This document shows positions 719-11,728 of a DNA stretch of 24,000 bases, one piece after another. Both the position numbers and the translations under genes were made by a program. This DNA comes from Candidatus Puniceispirillaceae bacterium (GTDB lineage Bacteria > Pseudomonadota > Alphaproteobacteria > Puniceispirillales > Puniceispirillaceae), in the NCBI GenBank assembly GCA_049889355.1, contig JBMHDN010000032.1, positions 109,282 to 133,281 on the forward strand, written 5' to 3'. Each line of letters starts with the position of its first letter. Position 1 is the first letter of the stretch. A model generated the notes under the pieces. It had not been told where the DNA came from, did not search any database, and saw only the letters and a program-made list of their open reading frames with translations.

Positions 719-1084
719 CTAGACCCATTTGTCATTTTCGGCCGTGAGGTTGCCGCCAGCTTCGCCTGTATTCACCACGCCGCGCGGTTCAGCTAACAAC
801 ACATGGCATTCCTCATGCGCAAAAGGCTTATGCTGAACCCCTTTTGGAACCACATACATCTCACCCGCGTTAAGTGCCACTGTCTGGTCTGCCATTTCAA
901 TATACATCGTCCCTTCGACCACTAAAAACATCTCGTCTGTATCAGCATGATCATGCCAGACAAATTCGCCTTTGAACTTTGCCAGTTTCAACTGGTAATC
1001 ATTCAGCTCTGCAATCACCCGCGGTGACCAGAAATCAGAAAATTTGCTCAATTTTTCTTTCAGATTAATCGCTGTATCTGGCAT
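719..1084 (-). CDS. small cupin-domain protein (cupin_2 type)
   Basis: The ORF contains WHDHADTDEMFLVVEGTMYIEM...GEMYVVPKGVQHKP, i.e. the two-motif cupin beta-barrel signature G(X)5HXH...E / G(X)5PXG...H. I prefer the ATG at 1084 (MPDTAINLKEK, about 121 aa) because AGGA lies about 8 nt upstream. The ORF track extends to an ATG at 1111 that has no SD. Confidence 0.75.
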   Translation of the reverse strand: MPDTAINLKEKLSKFSDFWSPRVIAELNDYQLKLAKFKGEFVWHDHADTDEMFLVVEGTMYIEMADQTVALNAGEMYVVPKGVQHKPFAHEECHVLLAEPRGVVNTGEAGGNLTAENDKWV

Positions 1085-1161
1085 CAACTCATCCTGTCTA
1101 TAGTCCAACATATCGGTATATCAGCCTGCCCCCAAAGCGGGGTATGCTAGGGGCTGTTATC

Positions 1162-1293
1162 TTAAAAGCTGGTCAGCGCATACCAGATGACAAATAAAAT
1201 CCAGCCCATCAGATTCAATTCAAAGACCAGCAGATAAAAAATGATGGTGCCAACACACAAAAAGACTAAATTTTTGATGAAGGCTTTATCCAA
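1162..1293 (-). CDS. possible 43-aa small hydrophobic (two-helix) peptide, TTG start
   Basis: My own translation of the minus strand gives (TTG)DKAFIKNLVFLCVGTIIFYLLVFELNLMGWILFVIWYALTSF*. The frame is open from 1341, has no in-frame ATG and has a weak RBS. It is below the ORF-track size cut-off and may be a remnant or non-coding. Confidence 0.2.
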   Translation of the reverse strand: MDKAFIKNLVFLCVGTIIFYLLVFELNLMGWILFVIWYALTSF

Positions 1294-1333
1294 GGCATCT
1301 ATTCCACTGTCTTTGAATATGGTTGAATAAGGA

Positions 1334-2029
1334 TTAAGATTTTATCTTCTCCTTTATCCACTCCGAACTTCTTGGAAAATAGCTAAATCTACTCAGATGA
1401 GGAACACTAAATAAAAAAACTTTCTCTAATTTTAATTTATCTGCCTCTATTGCACCAACGTTTAAGGTACATATTTTTCGTTGAGGATTGGGTTTCAATT
1501 CAATTTCGCAATACTCATTCACAATCATCTTATTCTTAAAAAAATCATTTGCTCTTTTTCCGTTACAGATAACAAATCTAGGTTTTACTAATGACAATAT
1601 GAATTTATGGACTTGCCAACAAAGTTCTTCATCTACTTTGCGTAAATTGTTATCGTAACTATCTTCATCTACCGTTCTTACAAAACTAATATTTGAGGAA
1701 CATACTGTCTTTAGGTCAGGTGGAAGATCGGCAAATAATTGCTTTATTCTTTTCTGATGGGTATGGAGACCAGGTGGTTGGGGTTTTCCCCTTGCAAACC
1801 AAATACCCTCTGAAAACTCGTTAAAATTCTCATTTTTACGAAGTAAATGGTTTTCTATCGTATCTTCTTCTGGATTTTCAAATTGGTTACTTGAACCTCC
1901 AGGATTTGAACCCAGAAAATACCAATCACCTTTTTTTAAGGTATGGTTTGCTGAATACAAAAGTGACCCAGGGCGGTTGTTCAATCCTGTATCAATTAAT
2001 AATTTTTTAATTGATTCAATCTCTTCCAT
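1334..2029 (-). CDS. orphan 231-aa protein of the low-GC islet; candidate divergent uracil-DNA-glycosylase-superfamily (MUG/SMUG-like) fold
   Basis: This is an intact ATG-initiated ORF in DNA of about 30-35% GC. Its motif order is WYFLGSNPGG (compare GINPGL in MUG, GMNPGP in SMUG1), then VCSSNISFVRT (compare GVTKLVDRPT in MUG), then PRFVICNGKRANDFF (compare PQALAILGKQAYEQGF), then LFSVPHLSRFS (compare WVLPNPSGLS / HPSPRN). The comparison sequences are recalled from memory and no search was run. Confidence that it is coding is about 0.7; the figure given here is for the fold assignment. Confidence 0.45.
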   Translation of the reverse strand: MEEIESIKKLLIDTGLNNRPGSLLYSANHTLKKGDWYFLGSNPGGSSNQFENPEEDTIENHLLRKNENFNEFSEGIWFARGKPQPPGLHTHQKRIKQLFADLPPDLKTVCSSNISFVRTVDEDSYDNNLRKVDEELCWQVHKFILSLVKPRFVICNGKRANDFFKNKMIVNEYCEIELKPNPQRKICTLNVGAIEADKLKLEKVFLFSVPHLSRFSYFPRSSEWIKEKIKS

Positions 2030-2082
2030 ATATAAATTCTAGCATTCTATTCTTTCTTTTCCCATTCAATTTTCAATTTCCT

Positions 2083-2283
2083 CTACACAAGATCATATTC
2101 CACATGGAGGGATTCTAATCTCTCCTTTTTTTGACGATGTTTCTTGAGGACGGAATAAACAGAGTTTCCAGTTTCACCCCACCATTTTCCAATTTGAGTA
2201 GTGATACCTCTCTCAGTGAGGAGTTTAGTCATTTTGCCATAAGACATACCACCGTCCTGCAAAGACTTAATGTGATCATACAA
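2083..2283 (-). pseudogene. remnant of a serine-recombinase 'Recombinase'/HTH domain (integrase fragment), no ATG start
   Basis: The translation KELYDHIKSLQDGGMSYGKMTKLLTERGITTQIGKWWGETGNSVYSVLKKH follows the pattern A..V..IF.l...G.S...IA..LN..GI.T..GK.W....V..IL of large serine recombinases. No N-terminal resolvase catalytic domain is present. The ORF-track start is TTG. My translation shows the frame stays open upstream (…NRTNSFAKRNSDRYFARQ…) through the glmS stop without any ATG. This indicates a truncated gene. Confidence 0.5.
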
Positions 2284-2401: not shown

Positions 2402-4222
2402 TTACTCGACTGTAACCGATTTGGCGAGGTTGCGGGGCTGGTCTACGTCCGTGCCTTTTTCAACCGCGGTCAGATAGGCCAGAATCTGGGCAGGTATCGC
2501 CAGAATAATTGGTGCAACCAGCGGATCACATTCATCGAGTACCACCATATCACTGGCAAAATCCACCTGTGCAGCCGCTTCTTTTGTTGCGATCAGGATC
2601 ACCTCACCGCCGCGTGCTTCGGCTTCGCGCAAATTACTGGCCGACTTGGCAGACACCTCATCATTGCTAAGCATGGCAACAACCGGCAGCCCCTCTTCTA
2701 TCAATGCAATCGGCCCATGTTTCATCTCACCAGAAGCAAAGCCTTCTGCGTGGATATAAGAGAGCTCTTTGAGCTTTAGCGCACCTTCCATGGCCAGCGG
2801 GAACAGCATATCTCGGCCTAAAAACAGGCAGGAGCGTGCAGTGGTCAGCCGCTGGGCAACCGGCCGGATCGCATCAAACAAACCCGTTGCACGCCCGACC
2901 GCGCCAGGTACCCGCATCAGCAAATCATGGATCCGCGCTTCTTCAGCCGCCTCTAGCGTGCCATGTGCCCGGCCAAGAGCAACTGCAAGGCTGAGCAAGG
3001 CCGTGAGCTGGGCGGTAAACGCCTTGGTTGAGGCAACCCCAATTTCAGGACCGGCTCTGGTCGGGATGACCGCATCTGCCTCTCTGGCAATCGTCGATTG
3101 ATCAACATTGACCATGCCATAGGTTTTAAGCCCCATCTCTGCGCCATGGCGCATCGCCATTAGCGTATCAAGTGACTCGCCTGATTGTGAGATGACCAGC
3201 ACTGCACCGCCATTTACGGCAACAGGATGGCGATATCGATATTCAGAGGCGACCTCGACAACACACGGGATACCTGCAAGACGTTCAATCCAATAGCGGC
3301 CAATCTGGCCAGCATAATTGCTGGTCCCAGCCGCCAGAATGGTCAGATGCTTAATCTCACTTAATTGTTCATGACTGAGCGCGGCAGAGAGCCGACCTTC
3401 CCCATCTGTCATCGCAGACAGCGTATGGGCAATAGCATCAGGCTGTTCATGGATTTCCTTTTCCATGAAATGACGATAGCCAGCCTTATCAACCAAAATA
3501 GGGCTGGCAGTGGTGATGATCACTTCCCGATTTGCAGGCGCGCCTGACAGGTCAAATATCTCGGCCTCGCCTTTGCGGATGACCGCGTAATCCCCATCTT
3601 TTAAATAGATGATACGGCGGGTGAGATGGGCCATTGCAGCCGCATCTGAGGCAATGAAGCTTTCGCCGTCACCAAGGCCAATCGCCAGCGGTGAGGCATT
3701 GCGTGCCACCATCATAGAATCTGGATAATCTGTGCTAATGGCGGCCAGCGCATAGGCCCCTTCAATTTGGTCCAAAACCGAGGCAATGGCTTTTTCAGGG
3801 GTTAATCCAGATGACAGCGCGATATCAAATAAATGGGCCAGCACTTCAGAATCAGTATCGCTGGCAAATGAAATCCCCTTTGTGCTTAATTCAGCACGGA
3901 GCTCTGCGTAATTTTCAATAATCCCATTATGGACAATGGCGATTTTATCGCCGGCCATATGGGGGTGGGCGTTTGCCTCTGTCACGCCGCCATGGGTGGC
4001 CCAGCGTGTATGGCCGATTGCCAGATGACCGCTGAGCGGAGAGCCATTTAATTTTGCATCCAGTTCGGCGAGCTTGCCAACCGCGCGGCTGACCGCAAGG
4101 CCAGTCTCAGAAATGGCCGCGATCCCCGAGGAATCATAGCCACGATATTCCAACCTTTTGAGCGCATCTAACAAGATAGGGGCAGCATTTTGATCGCCAA
4201 TCTGTCCAACTATACCGCACAT
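2402..4222 (-). CDS. glmS: glutamine--fructose-6-phosphate aminotransferase (isomerizing)
   Basis: The 606-aa protein has the N-terminal MCGIVG (Ntn Cys nucleophile), a GATase-2 domain, two SIS domains and the canonical C-terminus ...LAKSVTVE. A GAGG SD lies upstream of the ATG at 4222. Confidence 0.97.
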   Translation of the reverse strand: MCGIVGQIGDQNAAPILLDALKRLEYRGYDSSGIAAISETGLAVSRAVGKLAELDAKLNGSPLSGHLAIGHTRWATHGGVTEANAHPHMAGDKIAIVHNGIIENYAELRAELSTKGISFASDTDSEVLAHLFDIALSSGLTPEKAIASVLDQIEGAYALAAISTDYPDSMMVARNASPLAIGLGDGESFIASDAAAMAHLTRRIIYLKDGDYAVIRKGEAEIFDLSGAPANREVIITTASPILVDKAGYRHFMEKEIHEQPDAIAHTLSAMTDGEGRLSAALSHEQLSEIKHLTILAAGTSNYAGQIGRYWIERLAGIPCVVEVASEYRYRHPVAVNGGAVLVISQSGESLDTLMAMRHGAEMGLKTYGMVNVDQSTIAREADAVIPTRAGPEIGVASTKAFTAQLTALLSLAVALGRAHGTLEAAEEARIHDLLMRVPGAVGRATGLFDAIRPVAQRLTTARSCLFLGRDMLFPLAMEGALKLKELSYIHAEGFASGEMKHGPIALIEEGLPVVAMLSNDEVSAKSASNLREAEARGGEVILIATKEAAAQVDFASDMVVLDECDPLVAPIILAIPAQILAYLTAVEKGTDVDQPRNLAKSVTVE

Positions 4223-4407
4223 ATCGAACCTCGTTTAACCTAGCCGTTAGCATGATGAGCAACAAGGTGGGATAACACACCACCTTCTTTTCATGGGCTT
4301 ACCATAAAAAACACCCTAAATCAGGCAGAAATTTGCTACAACCAAGATATCTGGATATATCTGTAGTTGCTGAACATTTGGGCAATAAAAAAGACAGTAG
4401 GGACGTT

Positions 4408-5739
4408 ATGGCATTCACCGCTATTATTTTGGCTGCAGGCAAAGGCAGCCGGCTCAAATCAAACCTTCCAAAGCCCCTACACCGCGTCGGTGGTCACCCG
4501 ATGCTGGGCTGGGTCATAGATAGCGCAACCTCAGCAGGCGCAACGCAAATCATCCCTGTAATTTCAAAGGACAGCCCTGCCCTCGAAGCCTATTTGAGCG
4601 ATTTTGAAGTCGCCATTCAGGACCCGCCACTTGGCACAGGTCATGCGGTATTGGCCGCCTCAGCCCATATCAAAGATAAATCAAAGCCGCTCATCATCTT
4701 ATTTGGCGACACCCCGCTTATCAGCGCAGCTAGTATCTCAGCCCTCGCCAAGACCATTGAAGAAGGTCTTGATATCTGTGTGGTAGGCTTTGAGACAGAG
4801 ACCCCGAAAGGCTATGGCCGGCTGGTCTTTGATGGTTCAGGCCAGCTCACCCGTATTGTTGAAGAATCTGAGGCCAGTTCCGCTGAAAAGGAAATCACAA
4901 CAGTGAATGGCGGGATGATGGCAGGGCGTGCAGATGTGATGCTCAGCTTGCTTGAAACCCTCTCGCCAGACAATTCACAAGGCGAGATTTTCCTGACCGA
5001 TATTGTCGCCTCAGGTCATGCAGCAGGTCACAAGATTAACGCTATCTTCATCGACCAATCTGAAATATCTGGCGTCAATAGCCGTGCTGACCTGGCGCAT
5101 ATTGAAACGTTGCTACAACATAAATTACGCGCCGCCGCAATGGCACAAGGGGCCACGCTGATTGCCCCTGAAACGGTGTTTTTATCAAGCGATACCGTCT
5201 TAGAGCGTGATGTGGTTATCGAACCGCATGTGGTGTTCGGAGCTGGCGTCCATATTGGTGAAGGCAGCATCATCAAAGCTTTTTCACATCTTGAAGGGGT
5301 GCAGACAAAAGCCTGCTGTGTTATCGGGCCTTATGCGAGACTGCGGCCGGGCACTGAACTGGATGAAGGCGTGAAAATCGGCAATTTCGTTGAAACCAAA
5401 AAAGCCCGCATTGCGGCCGGGGCGAAAGTCAACCACCTCTCTTATATCGGCGATGCAGAGGTCGGAGAGCAAGCCAATATCGGGGCGGGCACCATCACGT
5501 GTAATTATGATGGGTTTAACAAACATCAGACTCTTATCGGTGCTGGTGCGTTTATTGGCTCAAATACCGCGCTGGTAGCACCTGTATCGGTGGGAGCTGG
5601 TGCGATTATTGGTGCAGGCTCAACCATCACCAAAAATGTACCAGATGACGGTCTAGGCCTAACAAGAGCACCGCAAGCCAATTCAGAAAATATGGCCGAT
5701 AAGCTGCGTCAGCGCTTTCAAAAAGCCAAGAAAAAATAA
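4408..5739 (+). CDS. glmU: bifunctional UDP-N-acetylglucosamine pyrophosphorylase / glucosamine-1-phosphate N-acetyltransferase
   Basis: The N-terminus reads AIILAAGKGSRLKS..LPK (nucleotidyltransferase signature). The C-terminal half consists of hexapeptide left-handed beta-helix repeats (IGEGSII, IGPYARL, IGNFVE, IGAGTIT, IGAGAFIG, VGAGAIIGAGS). The true start is probably the ATG at 4408 (AGGGA SD about 6 nt upstream); the ORF-track start at 4333 is an upstream TTG. Confidence 0.95.
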   Translation: MAFTAIILAAGKGSRLKSNLPKPLHRVGGHPMLGWVIDSATSAGATQIIPVISKDSPALEAYLSDFEVAIQDPPLGTGHAVLAASAHIKDKSKPLIILFGDTPLISAASISALAKTIEEGLDICVVGFETETPKGYGRLVFDGSGQLTRIVEESEASSAEKEITTVNGGMMAGRADVMLSLLETLSPDNSQGEIFLTDIVASGHAAGHKINAIFIDQSEISGVNSRADLAHIETLLQHKLRAAAMAQGATLIAPETVFLSSDTVLERDVVIEPHVVFGAGVHIGEGSIIKAFSHLEGVQTKACCVIGPYARLRPGTELDEGVKIGNFVETKKARIAAGAKVNHLSYIGDAEVGEQANIGAGTITCNYDGFNKHQTLIGAGAFIGSNTALVAPVSVGAGAIIGAGSTITKNVPDDGLGLTRAPQANSENMADKLRQRFQKAKKK

Positions 5740-7370: not shown

Positions 7371-8624
7371 TCAAGAATCCAGCACCTGGCCTTTTTCCAT
7401 ATATTCCTGATCAATATCCAGAATATCCTTGTCCTGAATAGCCCGTTCAAATGATTGCAGACGCTTGAAAATCGAGATCAGCTCAATAATCGTGGTCCAG
7501 CTATTCACCAGATATTGGAAGGAATTAGACACTTGCGAGAAGGCGGTGATGATTTGCTGCATCACCCCATAGGTAAAGGCCGCCGCCGCAATCGCCGGGA
7601 TCAGAATAATATAGACAAAGATATTATCTGTTTGCAGATACAAGCCGCGGAAGACATTGAAATACATGTAATGGAAATAGAGACGGAAATAATTACGTCT
7701 CACATTGCCAAAAAGCTCCATCACTGTTGGTGGCTCAGCACGTGTTTCATCATCTTCGCCATAAACAAGCTCTTTGCGATAGGCCGCTTCAACACGCTGA
7801 TTGCGAAATTCAAGGCCTGGCAATTTGATACCCACAGCTGCCAAGAGACCTGTCCCGAAAATTGACCAAAACAGCGCAGCGGTAAGCAGTGGATAAGGAA
7901 TTGCGCCCACAATTGGCAATGTATCCACATAGCTGGACAGCGAAATCAGCAAAGGCAGGAAGGCAAATAAAGTCATGATCGCATCAACGATGGAAACGCC
8001 CAGCCCTTCCATAATACCGGCAAAACGCATGGTATCTTCCTGCACACGCTGGGCTGCCCCCTCAATATGGCGCAACCGGCCCCAGCGCGACATATAAAAA
8101 TCATTCATCGCATTACGCCAGCGGAAGATGTAATGGCTGACAAAAAAGCGCGTGGCGACATAAATCACCATCCAGACCAGCGCGATTTGCGCGAAAATCA
8201 GAATAAGGCTGTAAAACTCACCTGGGGTCACAGAATTTTCAGGGTTGAGCGCATTTTGAAGCAGGTCAAAAAATGGCCGCCGCCAATGGTTGATCGCAAC
8301 CGACACCTGCACCGAGAAATAAGTGGAAAACAGGATCAGCTGAGAGCCAACAATCGACCAGATCTGCCAGGGGTGTGGACAATAGCGGAACCAAAAGCCG
8401 GTAAATAGCGCACTAATGATGAAATAATAAATATAAAACCAGATAAAGTCAGGCGTGAAGAAAAATCCCATCCCAACAACAGGTTCAGCCCCTTCTGGTC
8501 TGGCCAGCCCAAAGCTCGCTCCTAAATCTGCGCCAAACAGATACCAAAAGGCCACCACAATCGCAGCCCAGACAATGGCACTGGTAAAAAACAGCTTTGG
8601 TCTTGGAAAAAATGACTCAAGCAT
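7371..8624 (-). CDS. bacA: SbmA/BacA-type peptide (antimicrobial peptide / microcin) uptake transporter, TMD-only ABC-like protein
   Basis: The 417-aa protein is near-colinear with E. coli SbmA as I recall it. Shared stretches include [88 protein letters not shown] and [14 protein letters not shown]. An AGGAGAGG SD precedes the ATG at 8624. Confidence 0.93.
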
Positions 8625-8655: not shown

Positions 8656-9768
8656 TTATTGTAATTCTGCATCTTCTACTTGTCGGTGCAAAGCGATATT
8701 TACCACCACACCGAGCGCAGCAAATACACTCAACATGGCGGTGCCACCATATGAAATCAATGGCAAAGGCGCACCAACCACTGGCAATAAGCCCGTCACC
8801 ATAGCGATATTCACAAAGACATAAGAGAAAATCATCATCGCAATCCCCACACAAACAAGCCGGCTGAACCGGTTTTCAGAGGAAAGCCCAATACGGAATA
8901 TACCGCCCAATATCGCCAGATATACCCCAAGCACAACCAGATTTCCGACTAGACCAAATTCCTCGCCTATCATGGTAAAGACAAAATCGGTTTGTTTTTC
9001 GGGTAGATAGTTTAATTGAGATTGAGAGCCCATCAAAAAGCCTTTTCCGAAAAGCCCGCCTGAACCAAGCGCAATTTTAGATTGGGTGATTTGATAGCCT
9101 GCCCCCAGCATATCTGCCTCTGGGTTCAAAAACGTCATCACGCGCGCTTTTTGATAGTCATAAAGCTGAGACCAGATAACCGGGATTGAGGCCAGAACGC
9201 CAGCAAGGCTCAGGAAAATATAGCGTTTTGGCAGGCCTGCCGAAAAAATAACCGCTAAGCCGCCGAGCATTAGCATCAAGGCAGTGCCCAAATCAGGTTG
9301 TGTCACCACAAGACCAAAGGGAATAGCCAGCATCAAAATGGGAATGATATAGCTTGAAATCCGGCTGATATCATCAGGCTGGCGTGTTGAGAAATAGCGC
9401 GCCAAGGCAATAATAAGCGCCAATTTAGCAGGCTCAGATGGCTGAAAATTAAAGCCGCCAATCGCGATCCAACGCACTGCCCCTGTACCAACCCCTATCA
9501 CCGGCAATATGGCCAGAACGGCCACAGCACCCAGCAAGCCAGCATAGCTGAAATCATAAATCAGGCGTAAAGGCAGGGCCGCAATGACGATAATCATCAC
9601 CACCCCGAGGCAGGCCCTGATGATATGGCGTTCTGCCCAAGGAGACCAAGCCCCTTCTGAGGCAGAATAGAGAGCCAAAGAGCCGACCAAAACCAACATC
9701 GCGGTGAAAAGCAGCATCAGCCAAGGAACGGCTATCACGATTTTAAAAGGCGTATTGGGTCTGCTCAT
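8656..9768 (-). CDS. rodA: SEDS-family peptidoglycan glycosyltransferase RodA (elongasome)
   Basis: This is a polytopic membrane protein with typical SEDS stretches (QPSEPAKL, PDLGTAL, LPEKQTDFVFTMIGEEFG, PLPLISYGGTAML). I place the start at the ATG at 9768 (MSRPNTPFK, 370 aa), 4 nt after the mrdA stop. The ORF-track start at 9852 would overlap mrdA by 80 nt. Confidence 0.93.
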   Translation of the reverse strand: MSRPNTPFKIVIAVPWLMLLFTAMLVLVGSLALYSASEGAWSPWAERHIIRACLGVVMIIVIAALPLRLIYDFSYAGLLGAVAVLAILPVIGVGTGAVRWIAIGGFNFQPSEPAKLALIIALARYFSTRQPDDISRISSYIIPILMLAIPFGLVVTQPDLGTALMLMLGGLAVIFSAGLPKRYIFLSLAGVLASIPVIWSQLYDYQKARVMTFLNPEADMLGAGYQITQSKIALGSGGLFGKGFLMGSQSQLNYLPEKQTDFVFTMIGEEFGLVGNLVVLGVYLAILGGIFRIGLSSENRFSRLVCVGIAMMIFSYVFVNIAMVTGLLPVVGAPLPLISYGGTAMLSVFAALGVVVNIALHRQVEDAELQ

Positions 9769-9772
9769 CTCA

Positions 9773-11728
9773 TCACACCCCTTCGCGTCCCAGAAGATAG
9801 GCAAAGACATCACGCGCGACAGGCGCGGCCATGCTAGAGCCTGAGCCGCCATGCTCTACCACAACTGAAATCGCATAGCGCGGGTTTTTATACGGGGCAT
9901 AGGCAACAAACAAGGCGTGATCACGTTCTTTCCATGGCCTGTCAATATTATCAATAATGCCGGCATCACGTTGTGCTTGAGTAATCCGTTTGACCTGCAC
10001 CGTTCCGGTCTTTCCGGCAATCTGATAGTCTGGCAAATCATAACGCCGCGCCGTCCCAAATCCACCTTGCATCACCGCGCGCATCCCGCGGCGCATCTCG
10101 CGCAATATATCAGAAGAGACTGGTATGGGTTCAAATTTGCGACTGTCTAAATCATCTGATTGAATGATGGTCGGGCTGATTTGTTGGCCAGTGGCAATAC
10201 GCCCTGTCATCACCGCCAGCTGTATCGGCGTGGTCAGCACAAAACCCTGGCCGATGCCGGCAATCACGGTCTCACCCGGTGTCCAGCTGGTCCCATAGCG
10301 TGCTTTCTTCCAATCTCGATTAGGCATCACGCCAATTTTCTCACCCGGAATGCCAAGGCCAGATACCTCACCAAGCCCAAAACGTCGGGCCATTTCATGA
10401 ATCTTATTAATCCCTGTTTTCAGTGCAATCTGATAGAAATACACATCGCAGGATTGGGCCACGGCCTGTGTGCCATCCAGCGCGCCATGCCCCCCTTCTC
10501 GCCAGCAATAAAAATTGCGATCGCCAAATTCAAAAAAGCCGCTACAGCCAATTTTGGTACGCGGGCTGATAACCCCCGCTTCCATCGCCGCTGCCATGAC
10601 CACCATTTTAAAAGTGGAACCAGGTGAATAAAGGCCCGATAAGCTCCGGTTCAAGAGCGGGTTGCGTGGATGGGTGTTCACCCGGCTCCAATCGCGTTGT
10701 AACAACCTGTCGGTAAAAATATTTGGATCATAGGACGGCAAGGATACCATCGCCAATACAGCGCCAGTGCGGATGTCAATCACCGAAACAGATCCCGATT
10801 CAGGCGGAATAAGATTATCCTTCGCATCTTTGAAAATTTTATCATCACCTGCTGCAATATGCGCGCGCAAACTCTCATTGGACATTAATCCACGCTGGGC
10901 TTCAGATGAGGATAAATCCACCGGCCGCGCATTGCCTTGCTGCAAACGGTTAGTGATAAAATTCTGTAAATCGATATCGATGGTGAGATGCAAATCATCC
11001 CCCATCTCAGCTTGCCTATCGGTGAGCATGCGTACCGGCTTACCGCGTGCATTCACCTCAATGCGCTCCTGACCTTCACGCCCACGCAGTGAAGCCTCAA
11101 AACTGCGCTCCAAACCCGATTTACCTGTGCGCAAGCCAGGCAGACGGCGCAACCGCCGATTTTCTGAAACCTCACGTGCCGTGACAGGCGAGACATAACC
11201 GGTGATATGAGATAATAATGCGCCTTGCGGATAAATCCGCCTGAACCGTCGCTCAAAGACTGTACCGGGCAGCGCTGATGCGCGTACAGCAAGACGCGCA
11301 AGTTCTCGCTGGGTGAGATTTGAGCGAATAACCACTTCCAGAAAATCAGGCTGTCTTTCTACCTGTTCCAATATATCGCGGCGTTGCTGGGGGGTTAGCC
11401 TGACAATATGACCAACCTTATCGAGTAATTTATCAATATTATCAACATGGGCTGGCACCATCGTTACTTCAAAAACTTCTGAATTATCTGCCAGAATACG
11501 GCCACGGCGATCATAGATACGCCCGCGCGGTGCGACCATCAAACGCTCGTTAAACTGGTTATCATCCGATAATTTTTGATAGGCAGCAGACTGATTAATC
11601 TGGATTTGATAAAGCCGGCCGACCAGCACGGCACTCAGCAGTAATTGACCGCCAGCCACAAATAACATACGGCGCGAGATATTGGTTTTTTGTTCTTTAT
11701 TTTCTTTGCGTTCACGGCGCATCGCCAC
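9773..11728 (-). CDS. mrdA: penicillin-binding protein 2 (elongasome transpeptidase)
   Basis: The protein has an N-terminal membrane anchor, a PBP dimerisation domain, and a transpeptidase domain with STFK (SxxK), SCD (SxN-type) and KTGT (KTG) boxes in the right order. The start is the GTG at 11728 (GAGGA SD 6 nt upstream) or the ATG at 11722. Confidence 0.95.
   Translation of the reverse strand: MAMRRERKENKEQKTNISRRMLFVAGGQLLLSAVLVGRLYQIQINQSAAYQKLSDDNQFNERLMVAPRGRIYDRRGRILADNSEVFEVTMVPAHVDNIDKLLDKVGHIVRLTPQQRRDILEQVERQPDFLEVVIRSNLTQRELARLAVRASALPGTVFERRFRRIYPQGALLSHITGYVSPVTAREVSENRRLRRLPGLRTGKSGLERSFEASLRGREGQERIEVNARGKPVRMLTDRQAEMGDDLHLTIDIDLQNFITNRLQQGNARPVDLSSSEAQRGLMSNESLRAHIAAGDDKIFKDAKDNLIPPESGSVSVIDIRTGAVLAMVSLPSYDPNIFTDRLLQRDWSRVNTHPRNPLLNRSLSGLYSPGSTFKMVVMAAAMEAGVISPRTKIGCSGFFEFGDRNFYCWREGGHGALDGTQAVAQSCDVYFYQIALKTGINKIHEMARRFGLGEVSGLGIPGEKIGVMPNRDWKKARYGTSWTPGETVIAGIGQGFVLTTPIQLAVMTGRIATGQQISPTIIQSDDLDSRKFEPIPVSSDILREMRRGMRAVMQGGFGTARRYDLPDYQIAGKTGTVQVKRITQAQRDAGIIDNIDRPWKERDHALFVAYAPYKNPRYAISVVVEHGGSGSSMAAPVARDVFAYLLGREGV

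Follow-up and report, generated by a model that had tools for sequence, protein, structure and literature searches.

What is encoded by the low-GC gene that lies directly behind glmS in a SAR116 bacterium, and how did it come to be there? The gene occupies positions 1334-2029, on the minus strand, of a 24,000-nt stretch of DNA from a Candidatus Puniceispirillaceae bacterium (contig JBMHDN010000032.1; the whole stretch is called the window here), where the listing of open reading frames (ORFs) confirms a frame of 231 aa with an ATG start. The exact protein is already deposited, annotated as hypothetical, from a metagenome-assembled genome (MAG) of Candidatus Puniceispirillaceae (SAR116). Its membership of the uracil-DNA glycosylase (UDG) superfamily is close to certain, and the family to which it belongs forms its own clade, outside the established UDG families. 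We argue below that it is a candidate for anti-phage defence.

The ORF represents a real gene and not a chance frame, since 1036 homologous clusters exist and since comparison with a copy of 82% identity from an alphaproteobacterial single-cell genome (L005; the loci of relatives are designated by L numbers) gives a dN/dS of 0.15 (dS 0.66, dN 0.10); the gene is under purifying selection. A sequence-only reading of this DNA had described an intact gene on low-GC, foreign-looking DNA, and both descriptions hold. The coordinates and all the motif strings that it quoted were confirmed, including NQFENPEEDTIENH at residues 48-61 and the four blocks listed in Table 1, and the GC content is 33.2% in the gene and 35.6% in the surrounding islet (1112-2401), against 53.8% in glmS and 49.5% in the whole window. 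The islet measures ~1.3 kb and separates glmS from a cupin gene (719-1111, minus strand). DNA similarity to L005 (82%) is limited to positions 1321-2073, that is, the gene with 44 bp upstream and 13 bp downstream, and the gene therefore moves as a compact unit; a sigma-70-like match, as a consensus match only, lies at 2076-2049 on the minus strand. The remainder of the window consists of core housekeeping genes (glmU, hldE-like, sbmA/bacA, rodA, PBP2, mreC, mreB, ilvC, ilvN, ilvB and miaA), and the window contains no tRNAs and no Rfam matches.

The superfamily assignment is carried by structure and by family-level profiles. An AlphaFold2 model calculated from an 11-sequence alignment reached a predicted local distance difference test (pLDDT) score of 88.9 and a predicted template modelling (pTM) score of 0.88. 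Foldseek comparison of this model with the Protein Data Bank (PDB) returned UDG-superfamily proteins as 50 of the 50 top matches, so that the UDG fold claimed from the letters alone is borne out; the best match was 4zbx (E 6.8e-5, template modelling (TM) scores 0.49/0.57). Family 4 enzymes ranked first and TDG third (E 3e-4, TM 0.45), UdgX and the UDGs of T. maritima and T. thermophilus were also matched, and SMUG1 appeared at rank 18 (E 7e-3, TM 0.38). A viral structure library returned only phage COG1573 UDGs and UDG-fused polymerases. With Pfam profile PF03167, the family as a whole is recognized (30 of 142 members, best E 4.7e-7), whereas the window protein alone stays below the threshold (E 0.0098, 16.4 bits against a cut-off of 24.3) in a match that spans residues 144-226 and profile positions 78-133 of 141. 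A profile built from the 142 sequences matches the S. tokodaii family-4 UDG (4zbx) with E=4.8e-6; it was the only one that worked, as searches of the PDB sequences with the single sequence or a shallow profile yielded nothing useful. Some family members are named "uracil-DNA glycosylase family protein" by NCBI, and searches of NCBIfam and PADLOC gave no match for the UDG-like protein or for the small recombinase-domain ORF beside it, which is described below.

The gene had been taken for an orphan, but besides the protein itself there are 10 close homologues at 38-84% identity. A profile search started from this set recovered 1036 cluster representatives with E<=1e-3, and 646 when the limit was set to E<=1e-10; almost all measure 210-250 aa. 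In an alignment of 142 family representatives, on which all conservation figures given here are based, residues G21, Y25, S26, T30, G34, Y37, G40, N42, P43, G44, G45, W77, Q92, N113, F116, W138, H141, P150, G157, P210 and H211 are conserved at 90% or more (F116 at 98%, H211 at 92%), and N70 at 83%. The first five of these fall within residues 1-35, so that the ~35 N-terminal residues once considered an extra segment in fact belong to what the family conserves. Motif 1 and strand beta2 are separated by 60 residues, among which W77 and Q92 are near-invariant, and this segment is ~30 residues longer than its counterpart in the S. tokodaii UDG. Cysteines occur in the window protein only at C110, C137, C155 and C187; the first 100 residues contain none. 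One long family member (P0024, 535 aa) has a PIN_3 nuclease domain fused to the UDG-like domain, and N-terminal extensions are also present in the long members P0023, P0047, P0059, P0093, P0129 and P0160.

Four blocks had been proposed as the counterparts of the conserved blocks of the UDG fold, and all of them are real conserved elements (Table 1). Blocks 2 and 3 pair with the S. tokodaii UDG column by column; blocks 1 and 4 contain the near-invariant N42/P43/G44 and P210/H211. Motif 1, in which the model places a strand at residues 36-40, pairs with GEAPG of 4zbx (domain 1, weak) and with LGLNPG of the defence glycosylase Brig1. In block 4 the sequence "PHLS" follows the last strand, with the order P-H and not H-P as in motif B; judged by position, and not residue by residue, His211 may be the equivalent of the motif-B His.

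The residue expected to read the base is Asn113. Alignment by hidden Markov model (HMM) places N113 on N82 of the S. tokodaii UDG (residue 82 of the 4zbx chain), pairing "...vcasNliFvrsk" with "VFITNVVKCRPP" and, in beta3, "kPkvIiafG" with "MPKIIVTLG". The N204D variant of human UNG reportedly gains cytosine-DNA glycosylase activity, and an Asn at the base-reading position is therefore taken to mark uracil/thymine-type specificity. In the S. tokodaii enzyme N82 hydrogen-bonds the Watson-Crick face of uracil, and Brig1 has Glu147 at this position (PMC11078745). Given that N113 is 99% conserved and that no conserved acid follows two residues after it (position +2 being Ser/Ile), we infer that the target would be a uracil- or thymine-type base, possibly 5-substituted. 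The predicted active site thus combines family-2/3 chemistry with a family-4-like core.

This combination separates the family from each of the established UDG families. Family 4 (S. tokodaii 4ZBX/4ZBY, T. maritima 1L9G/1VK2) provides the closest matches of the UDG-like protein by both sequence profile and Foldseek, and its beta2 Asn and "PKxI(I/V)xxG" strand beta3 align; however, motif A there is GE(A/G)PG and here GSNPGG, the four-Cys ligand set of the 4Fe-4S cluster is absent, and the present family has ~30 added residues between motif 1 and beta2 and ~35 conserved residues ahead of beta1. We rejected membership of family 4 on the missing Fe-S cysteines and the differing motif A. SMUG1 of family 3 follows the same logic as N42/N113/H211 here, with one Asn in its motif 1 (GMNPG), another in beta2 and a His in motif 2 (HPSPRN), and was rejected because of its Foldseek rank and the lack of an HMM match. 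Family 2 MUG/TDG shares the motif 1 Asn (GINPG), and TDG is the third Foldseek match, but motif 2 there has no His (NPSGLS or MPSSSAR), in contrast to the conserved His of the C-terminal loop here; with this His, no sequence-profile match and only a moderate fold match to TDG, this family was rejected too. The MUG/SMUG-type label of the sequence-only reading accordingly fits the chemistry and not the lineage, the best matches being family 4, then TDG and UdgX.

The distribution of the gene was assessed by reading 16 distinct chromosomal contexts of relatives, counted without a background model: all 16 are mobile or variable and none is a conserved core operon, so that the outcome named in the sequence-only reading as refuting its claim, homologues consistently in core housekeeping contexts, did not occur. 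The gene lies directly downstream of glmS, on the same strand, in five lineages, namely the window (SAR116), L002, L008 and L010 (SAR86) and L009 (a Shewanellaceae MAG), the glmS proteins of which are only 42-48% identical to one another. Elsewhere it adjoins tyrosine integrases (L001, L003, L013, L016, L018 and L020), forms the last cargo gene of a Tn7-like element with TnsB/TniB/TniQ/TnsD (L019, Shewanella), occupies an integron cassette (L102, Vibrio vulnificus), lies in an island of small ORFs and toxin-antitoxin pairs (L011, Leclercia) or is part of cassette arrays (L004, L005). Plasmid copies were found in Roseomonas, Roseibium and Sphingobium. Among the neighbours are a Type IV methyl-directed restriction enzyme at L004 (PADLOC E ~1e-216), PDC-S06 (E=0) together with a Type IIG/ISP restriction-modification enzyme at L020, an MspI-type restriction-modification pair inside a P2-like prophage at L016, and an SLFN_AlbA_2 (Schlafen-domain) protein at L003. 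A tblastn search of 50,697 phage records gave no match to the UDG-like protein.

Some of these loci deserve a description of their own. The V. vulnificus copy (L102, 1-2774) is a superintegron cassette in an array with attC-type repeats of ~75-130 nt between every ORF, the repeats having ends of the form TAACAAA...GCCCCTTA...GCGTTA. In Shewanella mangrovisoli (L019, 10001-20702) the terminal cargo gene is accompanied by TnsB, TniB and two TniQ/TnsD genes, with a RES-domain gene alongside. A co-oriented upstream ORF abuts or overlaps the glycosylase start at L011 (9534-10004), L017 (9459-10004), L003 (99-995) and L004 (6822-7163), the overlap in Leclercia and Citrobacter being 4 bp; some lineages may therefore possess a unit of two genes. 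The partner ORF of Citrobacter received no PADLOC or Pfam assignment. Relatives of it at the DNA level are carried by 63 E. coli plasmids that lack the glycosylase, and a search of complete E. coli genomes matched only this upstream partner ORF and not the glycosylase.

What function do these observations favour? Brig1, Brig2 and Brig3 are single UDG-superfamily genes that provide defence through excision of modified bases (PMC11078745; bioRxiv 10.1101/2025.10.29.685425; 10.64898/2026.02.25.707755). Because relatives of the window gene ride on integrons, transposons, prophages and defence islands, we consider Brig-type anti-phage defence its most likely role, a judgement on which we are evenly poised. 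The central call of the sequence-only reading, a divergent glycosylase with the UDG fold on foreign DNA and a candidate for single-gene defence, withstood all the computational tests applied. The protein is probably a catalytically competent, monofunctional glycosylase, representing a distinct clade of ~1000 clusters carried as single-gene mobile cargo. In the mechanism that we propose, the enzyme would flip the base into its pocket, where Asn113 would read a uracil/thymine-type Watson-Crick face, Asn42 of the GSNPGG loop would position the attacking water and His211 in the C-terminal loop would stabilize the leaving base; the conserved stretch of 60 residues that leads from motif 1 to beta2 (N70, W77, Q92) may enlarge the pocket for a 5-substituent. 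The glycosylase would thereby excise a modified pyrimidine found in the DNA of the phage and not of the host, and the resulting abasic sites would block phage replication.

Several points weigh against a role in defence. A recognized defence gene is directly adjacent in only ~4 of the 16 contexts, the model resembles solved UDGs only moderately (TM 0.45-0.57), and the equivalence of His211 with motif B rests on position along the sequence and not on a three-dimensional comparison. The lack of PADLOC and NCBIfam matches to the protein counts here as well, with the proviso that PADLOC v2 predates Brig1. In the study by Getz et al., 11 different integron UDG-like clusters are distinguished, and six of seven tested proteins gave no defence on the phage panel (bioRxiv 10.1101/2025.10.29.685425), so that only a modest prior can be granted to a single cargo gene of this type. 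Finally, a conserved uracil-reading Asn is equally expected of a repair UDG.

This last point leads to the strongest alternative, a repair-type UDG carried on mobile elements, which would remove uracil or deaminated or oxidized pyrimidines from host or element DNA to the benefit of AT-rich mobile DNA, with no role in immunity. SMUG1 and other repair enzymes employ the Asn/Asn/His constellation, the residue on which N113 falls is the uracil reader of a repair UDG, ordinary UDGs are common on phages and plasmids (many were among the viral structure matches), and the contexts at L011, L017 and L002 contain no defence genes. We nevertheless find this explanation unlikely: the distribution of the family is patchy and solely on mobile elements, with no core-genome context, its sequences are too divergent from the repair families to reach Pfam or NCBIfam thresholds, a conserved segment of 60 residues has been added at the pocket, and Type IV and other restriction systems are found among its neighbours.

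Less probable still is that the fold has been kept in a protein which is not a glycosylase, such as a binder of modified bases or abasic sites, a regulator, or a factor by which the mobile element counters defence. The modified-base sensing considered in the sequence-only reading falls under this alternative. Non-canonical chemistry is known among proteins with the UDG fold, the covalent crosslinker UdgX being one of the Foldseek matches, and the moderate similarity to solved enzymes would be compatible with such a role. However, the positions expected for catalysis are all nearly invariant across ~1000 clusters, which argues for retained chemistry, and the KRRIH-type loop of UdgX is not present in the sequence of the UDG-like protein.

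If the proposed defence glycosylase is active, immunity of this kind would extend to abundant ocean bacteria (SAR116, SAR86) and would point to phages with modified pyrimidines there. The clade comprises ~1000 clusters, was missed by Pfam thresholds, NCBIfam and PADLOC, and is spread on at least five kinds of mobile element.

How the gene reached its present location can be read from its boundaries. When the flanks of different loci were compared, the terminal codons of glmS (K S V T V E stop; consensus AARTCNGTNACNGTNGARTAR) proved to recur as direct repeats at cassette boundaries; generic repeat finding on positions 600-2800 did not reveal the boundary repeat. Two copies of the pattern ACNGTNGARTAR are present in the window, both on the glmS strand, against an expectation of 0.08, and two or more were obtained in 0 of 100 shuffles. 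The UDG-like gene is thus within a 1.1-kb cassette at the 3' end of glmS that is bracketed by glmS-terminal direct repeats, and where the sequence-only reading saw a decayed mobile element, a small cassette bounded in this manner is the better description. We presume that the cassette was integrated at the 3' end of glmS. Coordinates in the window and the positions of repeat copies at other loci are collected in Table 1.

Table 1. Features of the window and of related loci (positions refer to the respective stretch of DNA)
Locus	Feature	Position	Strand	Details
Window	UDG-superfamily glycosylase-like gene	1334..2029	-	ORF listing, AlphaFold2 model, Foldseek, family profile, dN/dS
Window	Motif 1 WYFLGSNPGG, strand beta1 and putative catalytic loop	1895..1924	-	residues 36-45; Asn42 codon 1904-1906
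Window	Block 2 VCSSNISFVRT, strand beta2, predicted base reader Asn113	1673..1705	-	residues 109-119; Asn113 codon 1691-1693
Window	Block 3 KPRFVICNGKRANDFF, strand beta3 and helix	1538..1585	-	residues 149-164; aligns with MPKIIVTLGRHSTKYI of 4zbx
Window	Block 4 SVPHLSRFS, loop after last strand, motif-B-like	1382..1408	-	residues 208-216; His211 codon 1397-1399
Window	Upstream block co-travelling with the gene, promoter-like site	2030..2073	-	DNA similarity to L005
Window	glmS, core gene, insertion target	2402..4222	-	606 aa, C-terminus ...NLAKSVTVE
Window	glmS 3' end, left islet boundary	2402..2422	-	core 12-mer ACAGTCGAGTAA at 2402-2413
Window	Direct-repeat copy of glmS terminal 12-mer ACAGTGGAATAG, right islet boundary	1299..1310	-	24 nt past the UDG stop codon
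Window	PF07508-type small ORF	2083..2283	-	66 aa from TTG start; frame open from 2442; possibly truncated
Window	Hydrophobic 43-aa ORF, outside the repeat-bounded unit	1162..1293	-	ORF listing; no informative family match
L008	Three repeat copies	9088-9108, 9949-9969, 10761-10781		bound GIY-YIG/NUMOD3 gene, then glycosylase gene alone
L010	Two repeat copies	9034-9054, 9937-9957
L004	Two repeat copies	7951-7971, 8082-8102		after the gene
L005	Two repeat copies	1390-1401, 4193-4213		each followed by a small ORF homologous to the window 66-aa ORF
L005	Small ORFs	1032-1418 (-), 1338-1748 (+), 4195-4557 (+)
L103	Four core copies	12147, 11646, 10006, 1892		all on the glmS strand
L103	Small ORF	10001-10378		1.8 kb downstream of glmS, pointing toward glmS

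The same arrangement recurs outside the window. L103 is an independent 551-kb metagenomic contig in which ~10 kb of small ORFs extend beyond the small-recombinase gene; its four core copies compare with an expectation of 0.13, and four or more were obtained in 0 of 100 shuffles. Repeat-delimited additive islands are thus present in the window, L103, L008, L010 and L005. That the glycosylase serves the mobility or maintenance of the cassette, through a lesion or nick at the glmS-end repeat or as an addiction toxin, is very improbable, for although one repeat-bounded cassette of L008 holds the UDG-like gene alone and its neighbour a GIY-YIG homing endonuclease, the cargo of further cassettes bounded by the repeat is unrelated (a glyoxalase-like gene, a MORN protein, small ORFs), and members of the family are also found on integrons, Tn7-like elements and integrase islands, each equipped with machinery of its own.

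The homing-endonuclease gene of L008 (SAR86; 9110-9889, plus strand) is free-standing, encodes GIY-YIG, NUMOD3 and helix-turn-helix domains and starts 2 bp past the glmS stop, which suggests that homing may contribute to spread at the glmS site. In the window a 13-nt inverted repeat (2381-2393 and 2415-2427, 12 of 13 positions complementary) straddles the glmS stop, with the core 12-mer in its 21-nt loop; it may act as a terminator or belong to a recombination site. The strongly hydrophobic 43-aa ORF between the right-hand repeat and the cupin gene may be a native small membrane protein or another cassette remnant. When the cupin protein on this flank was used for a scan, the 80 loci obtained were all unrelated, and no comparator with an empty site was among them.

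The small ORF between the glycosylase gene and glmS had been described as a recombinase remnant. The recombinase part of that description stands in that its homologues carry the Pfam Recombinase domain PF07508, although the match of the 66-aa ORF alone is weak (E=0.083); the ORF is a member of a large family of proteins that stand alone. A profile of the small ORFs finds at least 2475 homologues of 89-147 aa (median 123 aa), mostly from marine metagenomes, and most of these carry PF07508 only, with no catalytic resolvase domain. Genes of this type adjoin the glmS-end repeat in either orientation and have upstream of them a conserved stretch that may be coding; for 47 of the 120 top homologues, the frame at the N-terminus as called runs across the glmS-end motif, translated either forward or as its reverse complement. 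The window copy may be decayed, since there is no in-frame ATG, GTG or TTG upstream of 2283 in its frame and since it ends early. Its AlphaFold2 model is too poor to establish the fold (pLDDT 61), the core being helical at pLDDT 70-85; in this model, numbered by the 119-codon frame, residues 1-25 and 31-42 have pLDDT <50 and block means stay <50 up to about residue 40. Foldseek found nothing meaningful with the small-ORF model, the small ORF shows no similarity to the GIY-YIG endonuclease of L008, and no catalytic recombinase is present in the window.

The glmS-end repeats, together with the abundant small recombinase-domain proteins, are a more unusual observation than the glycosylase gene itself. 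They suggest accretion of cassettes at glmS, which could explain single-gene exchange in streamlined marine genomes. We put forward, as a tentative and somewhat doubtful proposal, that the 3' end of glmS hosts an undescribed gene-capture platform in which mini-cassettes with mimics of the last 12-21 nt of glmS, often adjoined by a ~120-aa protein that has only the recombinase domain, accumulate in tandem in SAR116, SAR86 and L103, integron-like but with another site and other machinery, and that the glycosylase would be its defence cargo, with a U/T-type specificity distinct from those of Brig1 and Brig3.

How does this locus compare with known systems? The position downstream of glmS is the classical hotspot of Tn7, but the window contains neither Tns genes nor Tn7 ends. 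We rejected a Tn7 remnant because there is no transposase in the window and because the boundaries, as direct repeats of the glmS coding end, are of the wrong type. Integrons differ in that no attC is present in the window. The locus resembles additive flexible genomic islands, which are delimited by recurring repeats of tRNA 3' ends, as in fGI-2 of the Methylophilaceae (PMC10872708): here too cassettes pile up by a conserved gene, separated by its last ~12-21 nt, the differences being that the repeated target is the coding end of glmS and not a tRNA, and that the sole recombinase-like protein associated with it, ~120 aa long, has PF07508 only and lacks a catalytic domain.

For the glycosylase, the comparison is with the Brig enzymes. 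Brig1 is an alpha-glucosyl-5-hydroxymethylcytosine DNA glycosylase (Hossain et al. 2024, PMC11078745), and its sequence was taken from the supplement of that paper and corrected against the DNA and the published residue numbers. The window protein resembles it as a single-gene UDG-superfamily protein in mobile or defence-island DNA with the same order of elements; the S. tokodaii family-4 UDG is the best structural match of both, and the LGxNPG motif 1 of Brig1 aligns with that of the family. Brig1 differs in using Glu147 as base reader where the UDG-like family has the invariant Asn113, and in a C-terminal loop without His. Alignment of the 142-sequence profile with Brig1 by hhalign covered only motif 1, at a non-significant probability of 7%, and with the Asn113/Glu147 difference this led us to reject membership of the Brig1 family. 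The Brig1 sequence as query found no related chain among the PDB chain sequences.

Brig3 is a 5-hydroxymethylcytosine glycosylase that acts with a partner, BapA, and relies on Asp127 and Glu55; its motif 1 contains N50-P51, and N50A abolishes defence (bioRxiv 10.64898/2026.02.25.707755). As described, it shares with the present family the superfamily, the Asn-Pro of motif 1, six strands with a beta-hairpin and a defence-island location. It differs in reading a cytosine-type base with Asp127/Glu55, where Asn113 and no conserved acid are found here, and no BapA-like partner is present in the window.

The most important comparison is with Brig2, because of the Vibrio integron members of the family, its AT-rich mobile DNA and the predicted U/T reading. 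Brig2, a UDG-like protein encoded in an integron, protects against phages whose thymidine is modified (Getz et al. 2025, bioRxiv 10.1101/2025.10.29.685425). By description only, the two have in common a UDG-like fold, AT-rich mobile contexts and a mostly pseudomonadotal distribution, to which the integron-cassette member at L102 and the U/T-type substrate predicted from Asn113 may be added. They differ in that ~25% of Brig2 homologues are Bacillota, whereas eight of the eight named members here are Pseudomonadota; six family accessions had no match in the portion of the Getz et al. supplement that was available. The fold and the integron-borne, AT-rich mobile features are common to all 11 integron UDG-like clusters and do not establish identity with Brig2. 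Compared by description only, the UDG-like family may be identical with that of Brig2, or may correspond to one of the ten further UDG-like clusters from integrons in the same preprint.

Base-excision immunity (Brig1 to Brig3 and the Dag enzymes) is a very recent field in which only a handful of specificities are known, and the Asn42/Asn113/His211 constellation would predict U/T-type targets, unlike the cytosine derivatives of Brig1 and Brig3. Defence glycosylases of the UDG superfamily are by now a known kind of system; the glmS-end repeats are a new observation.

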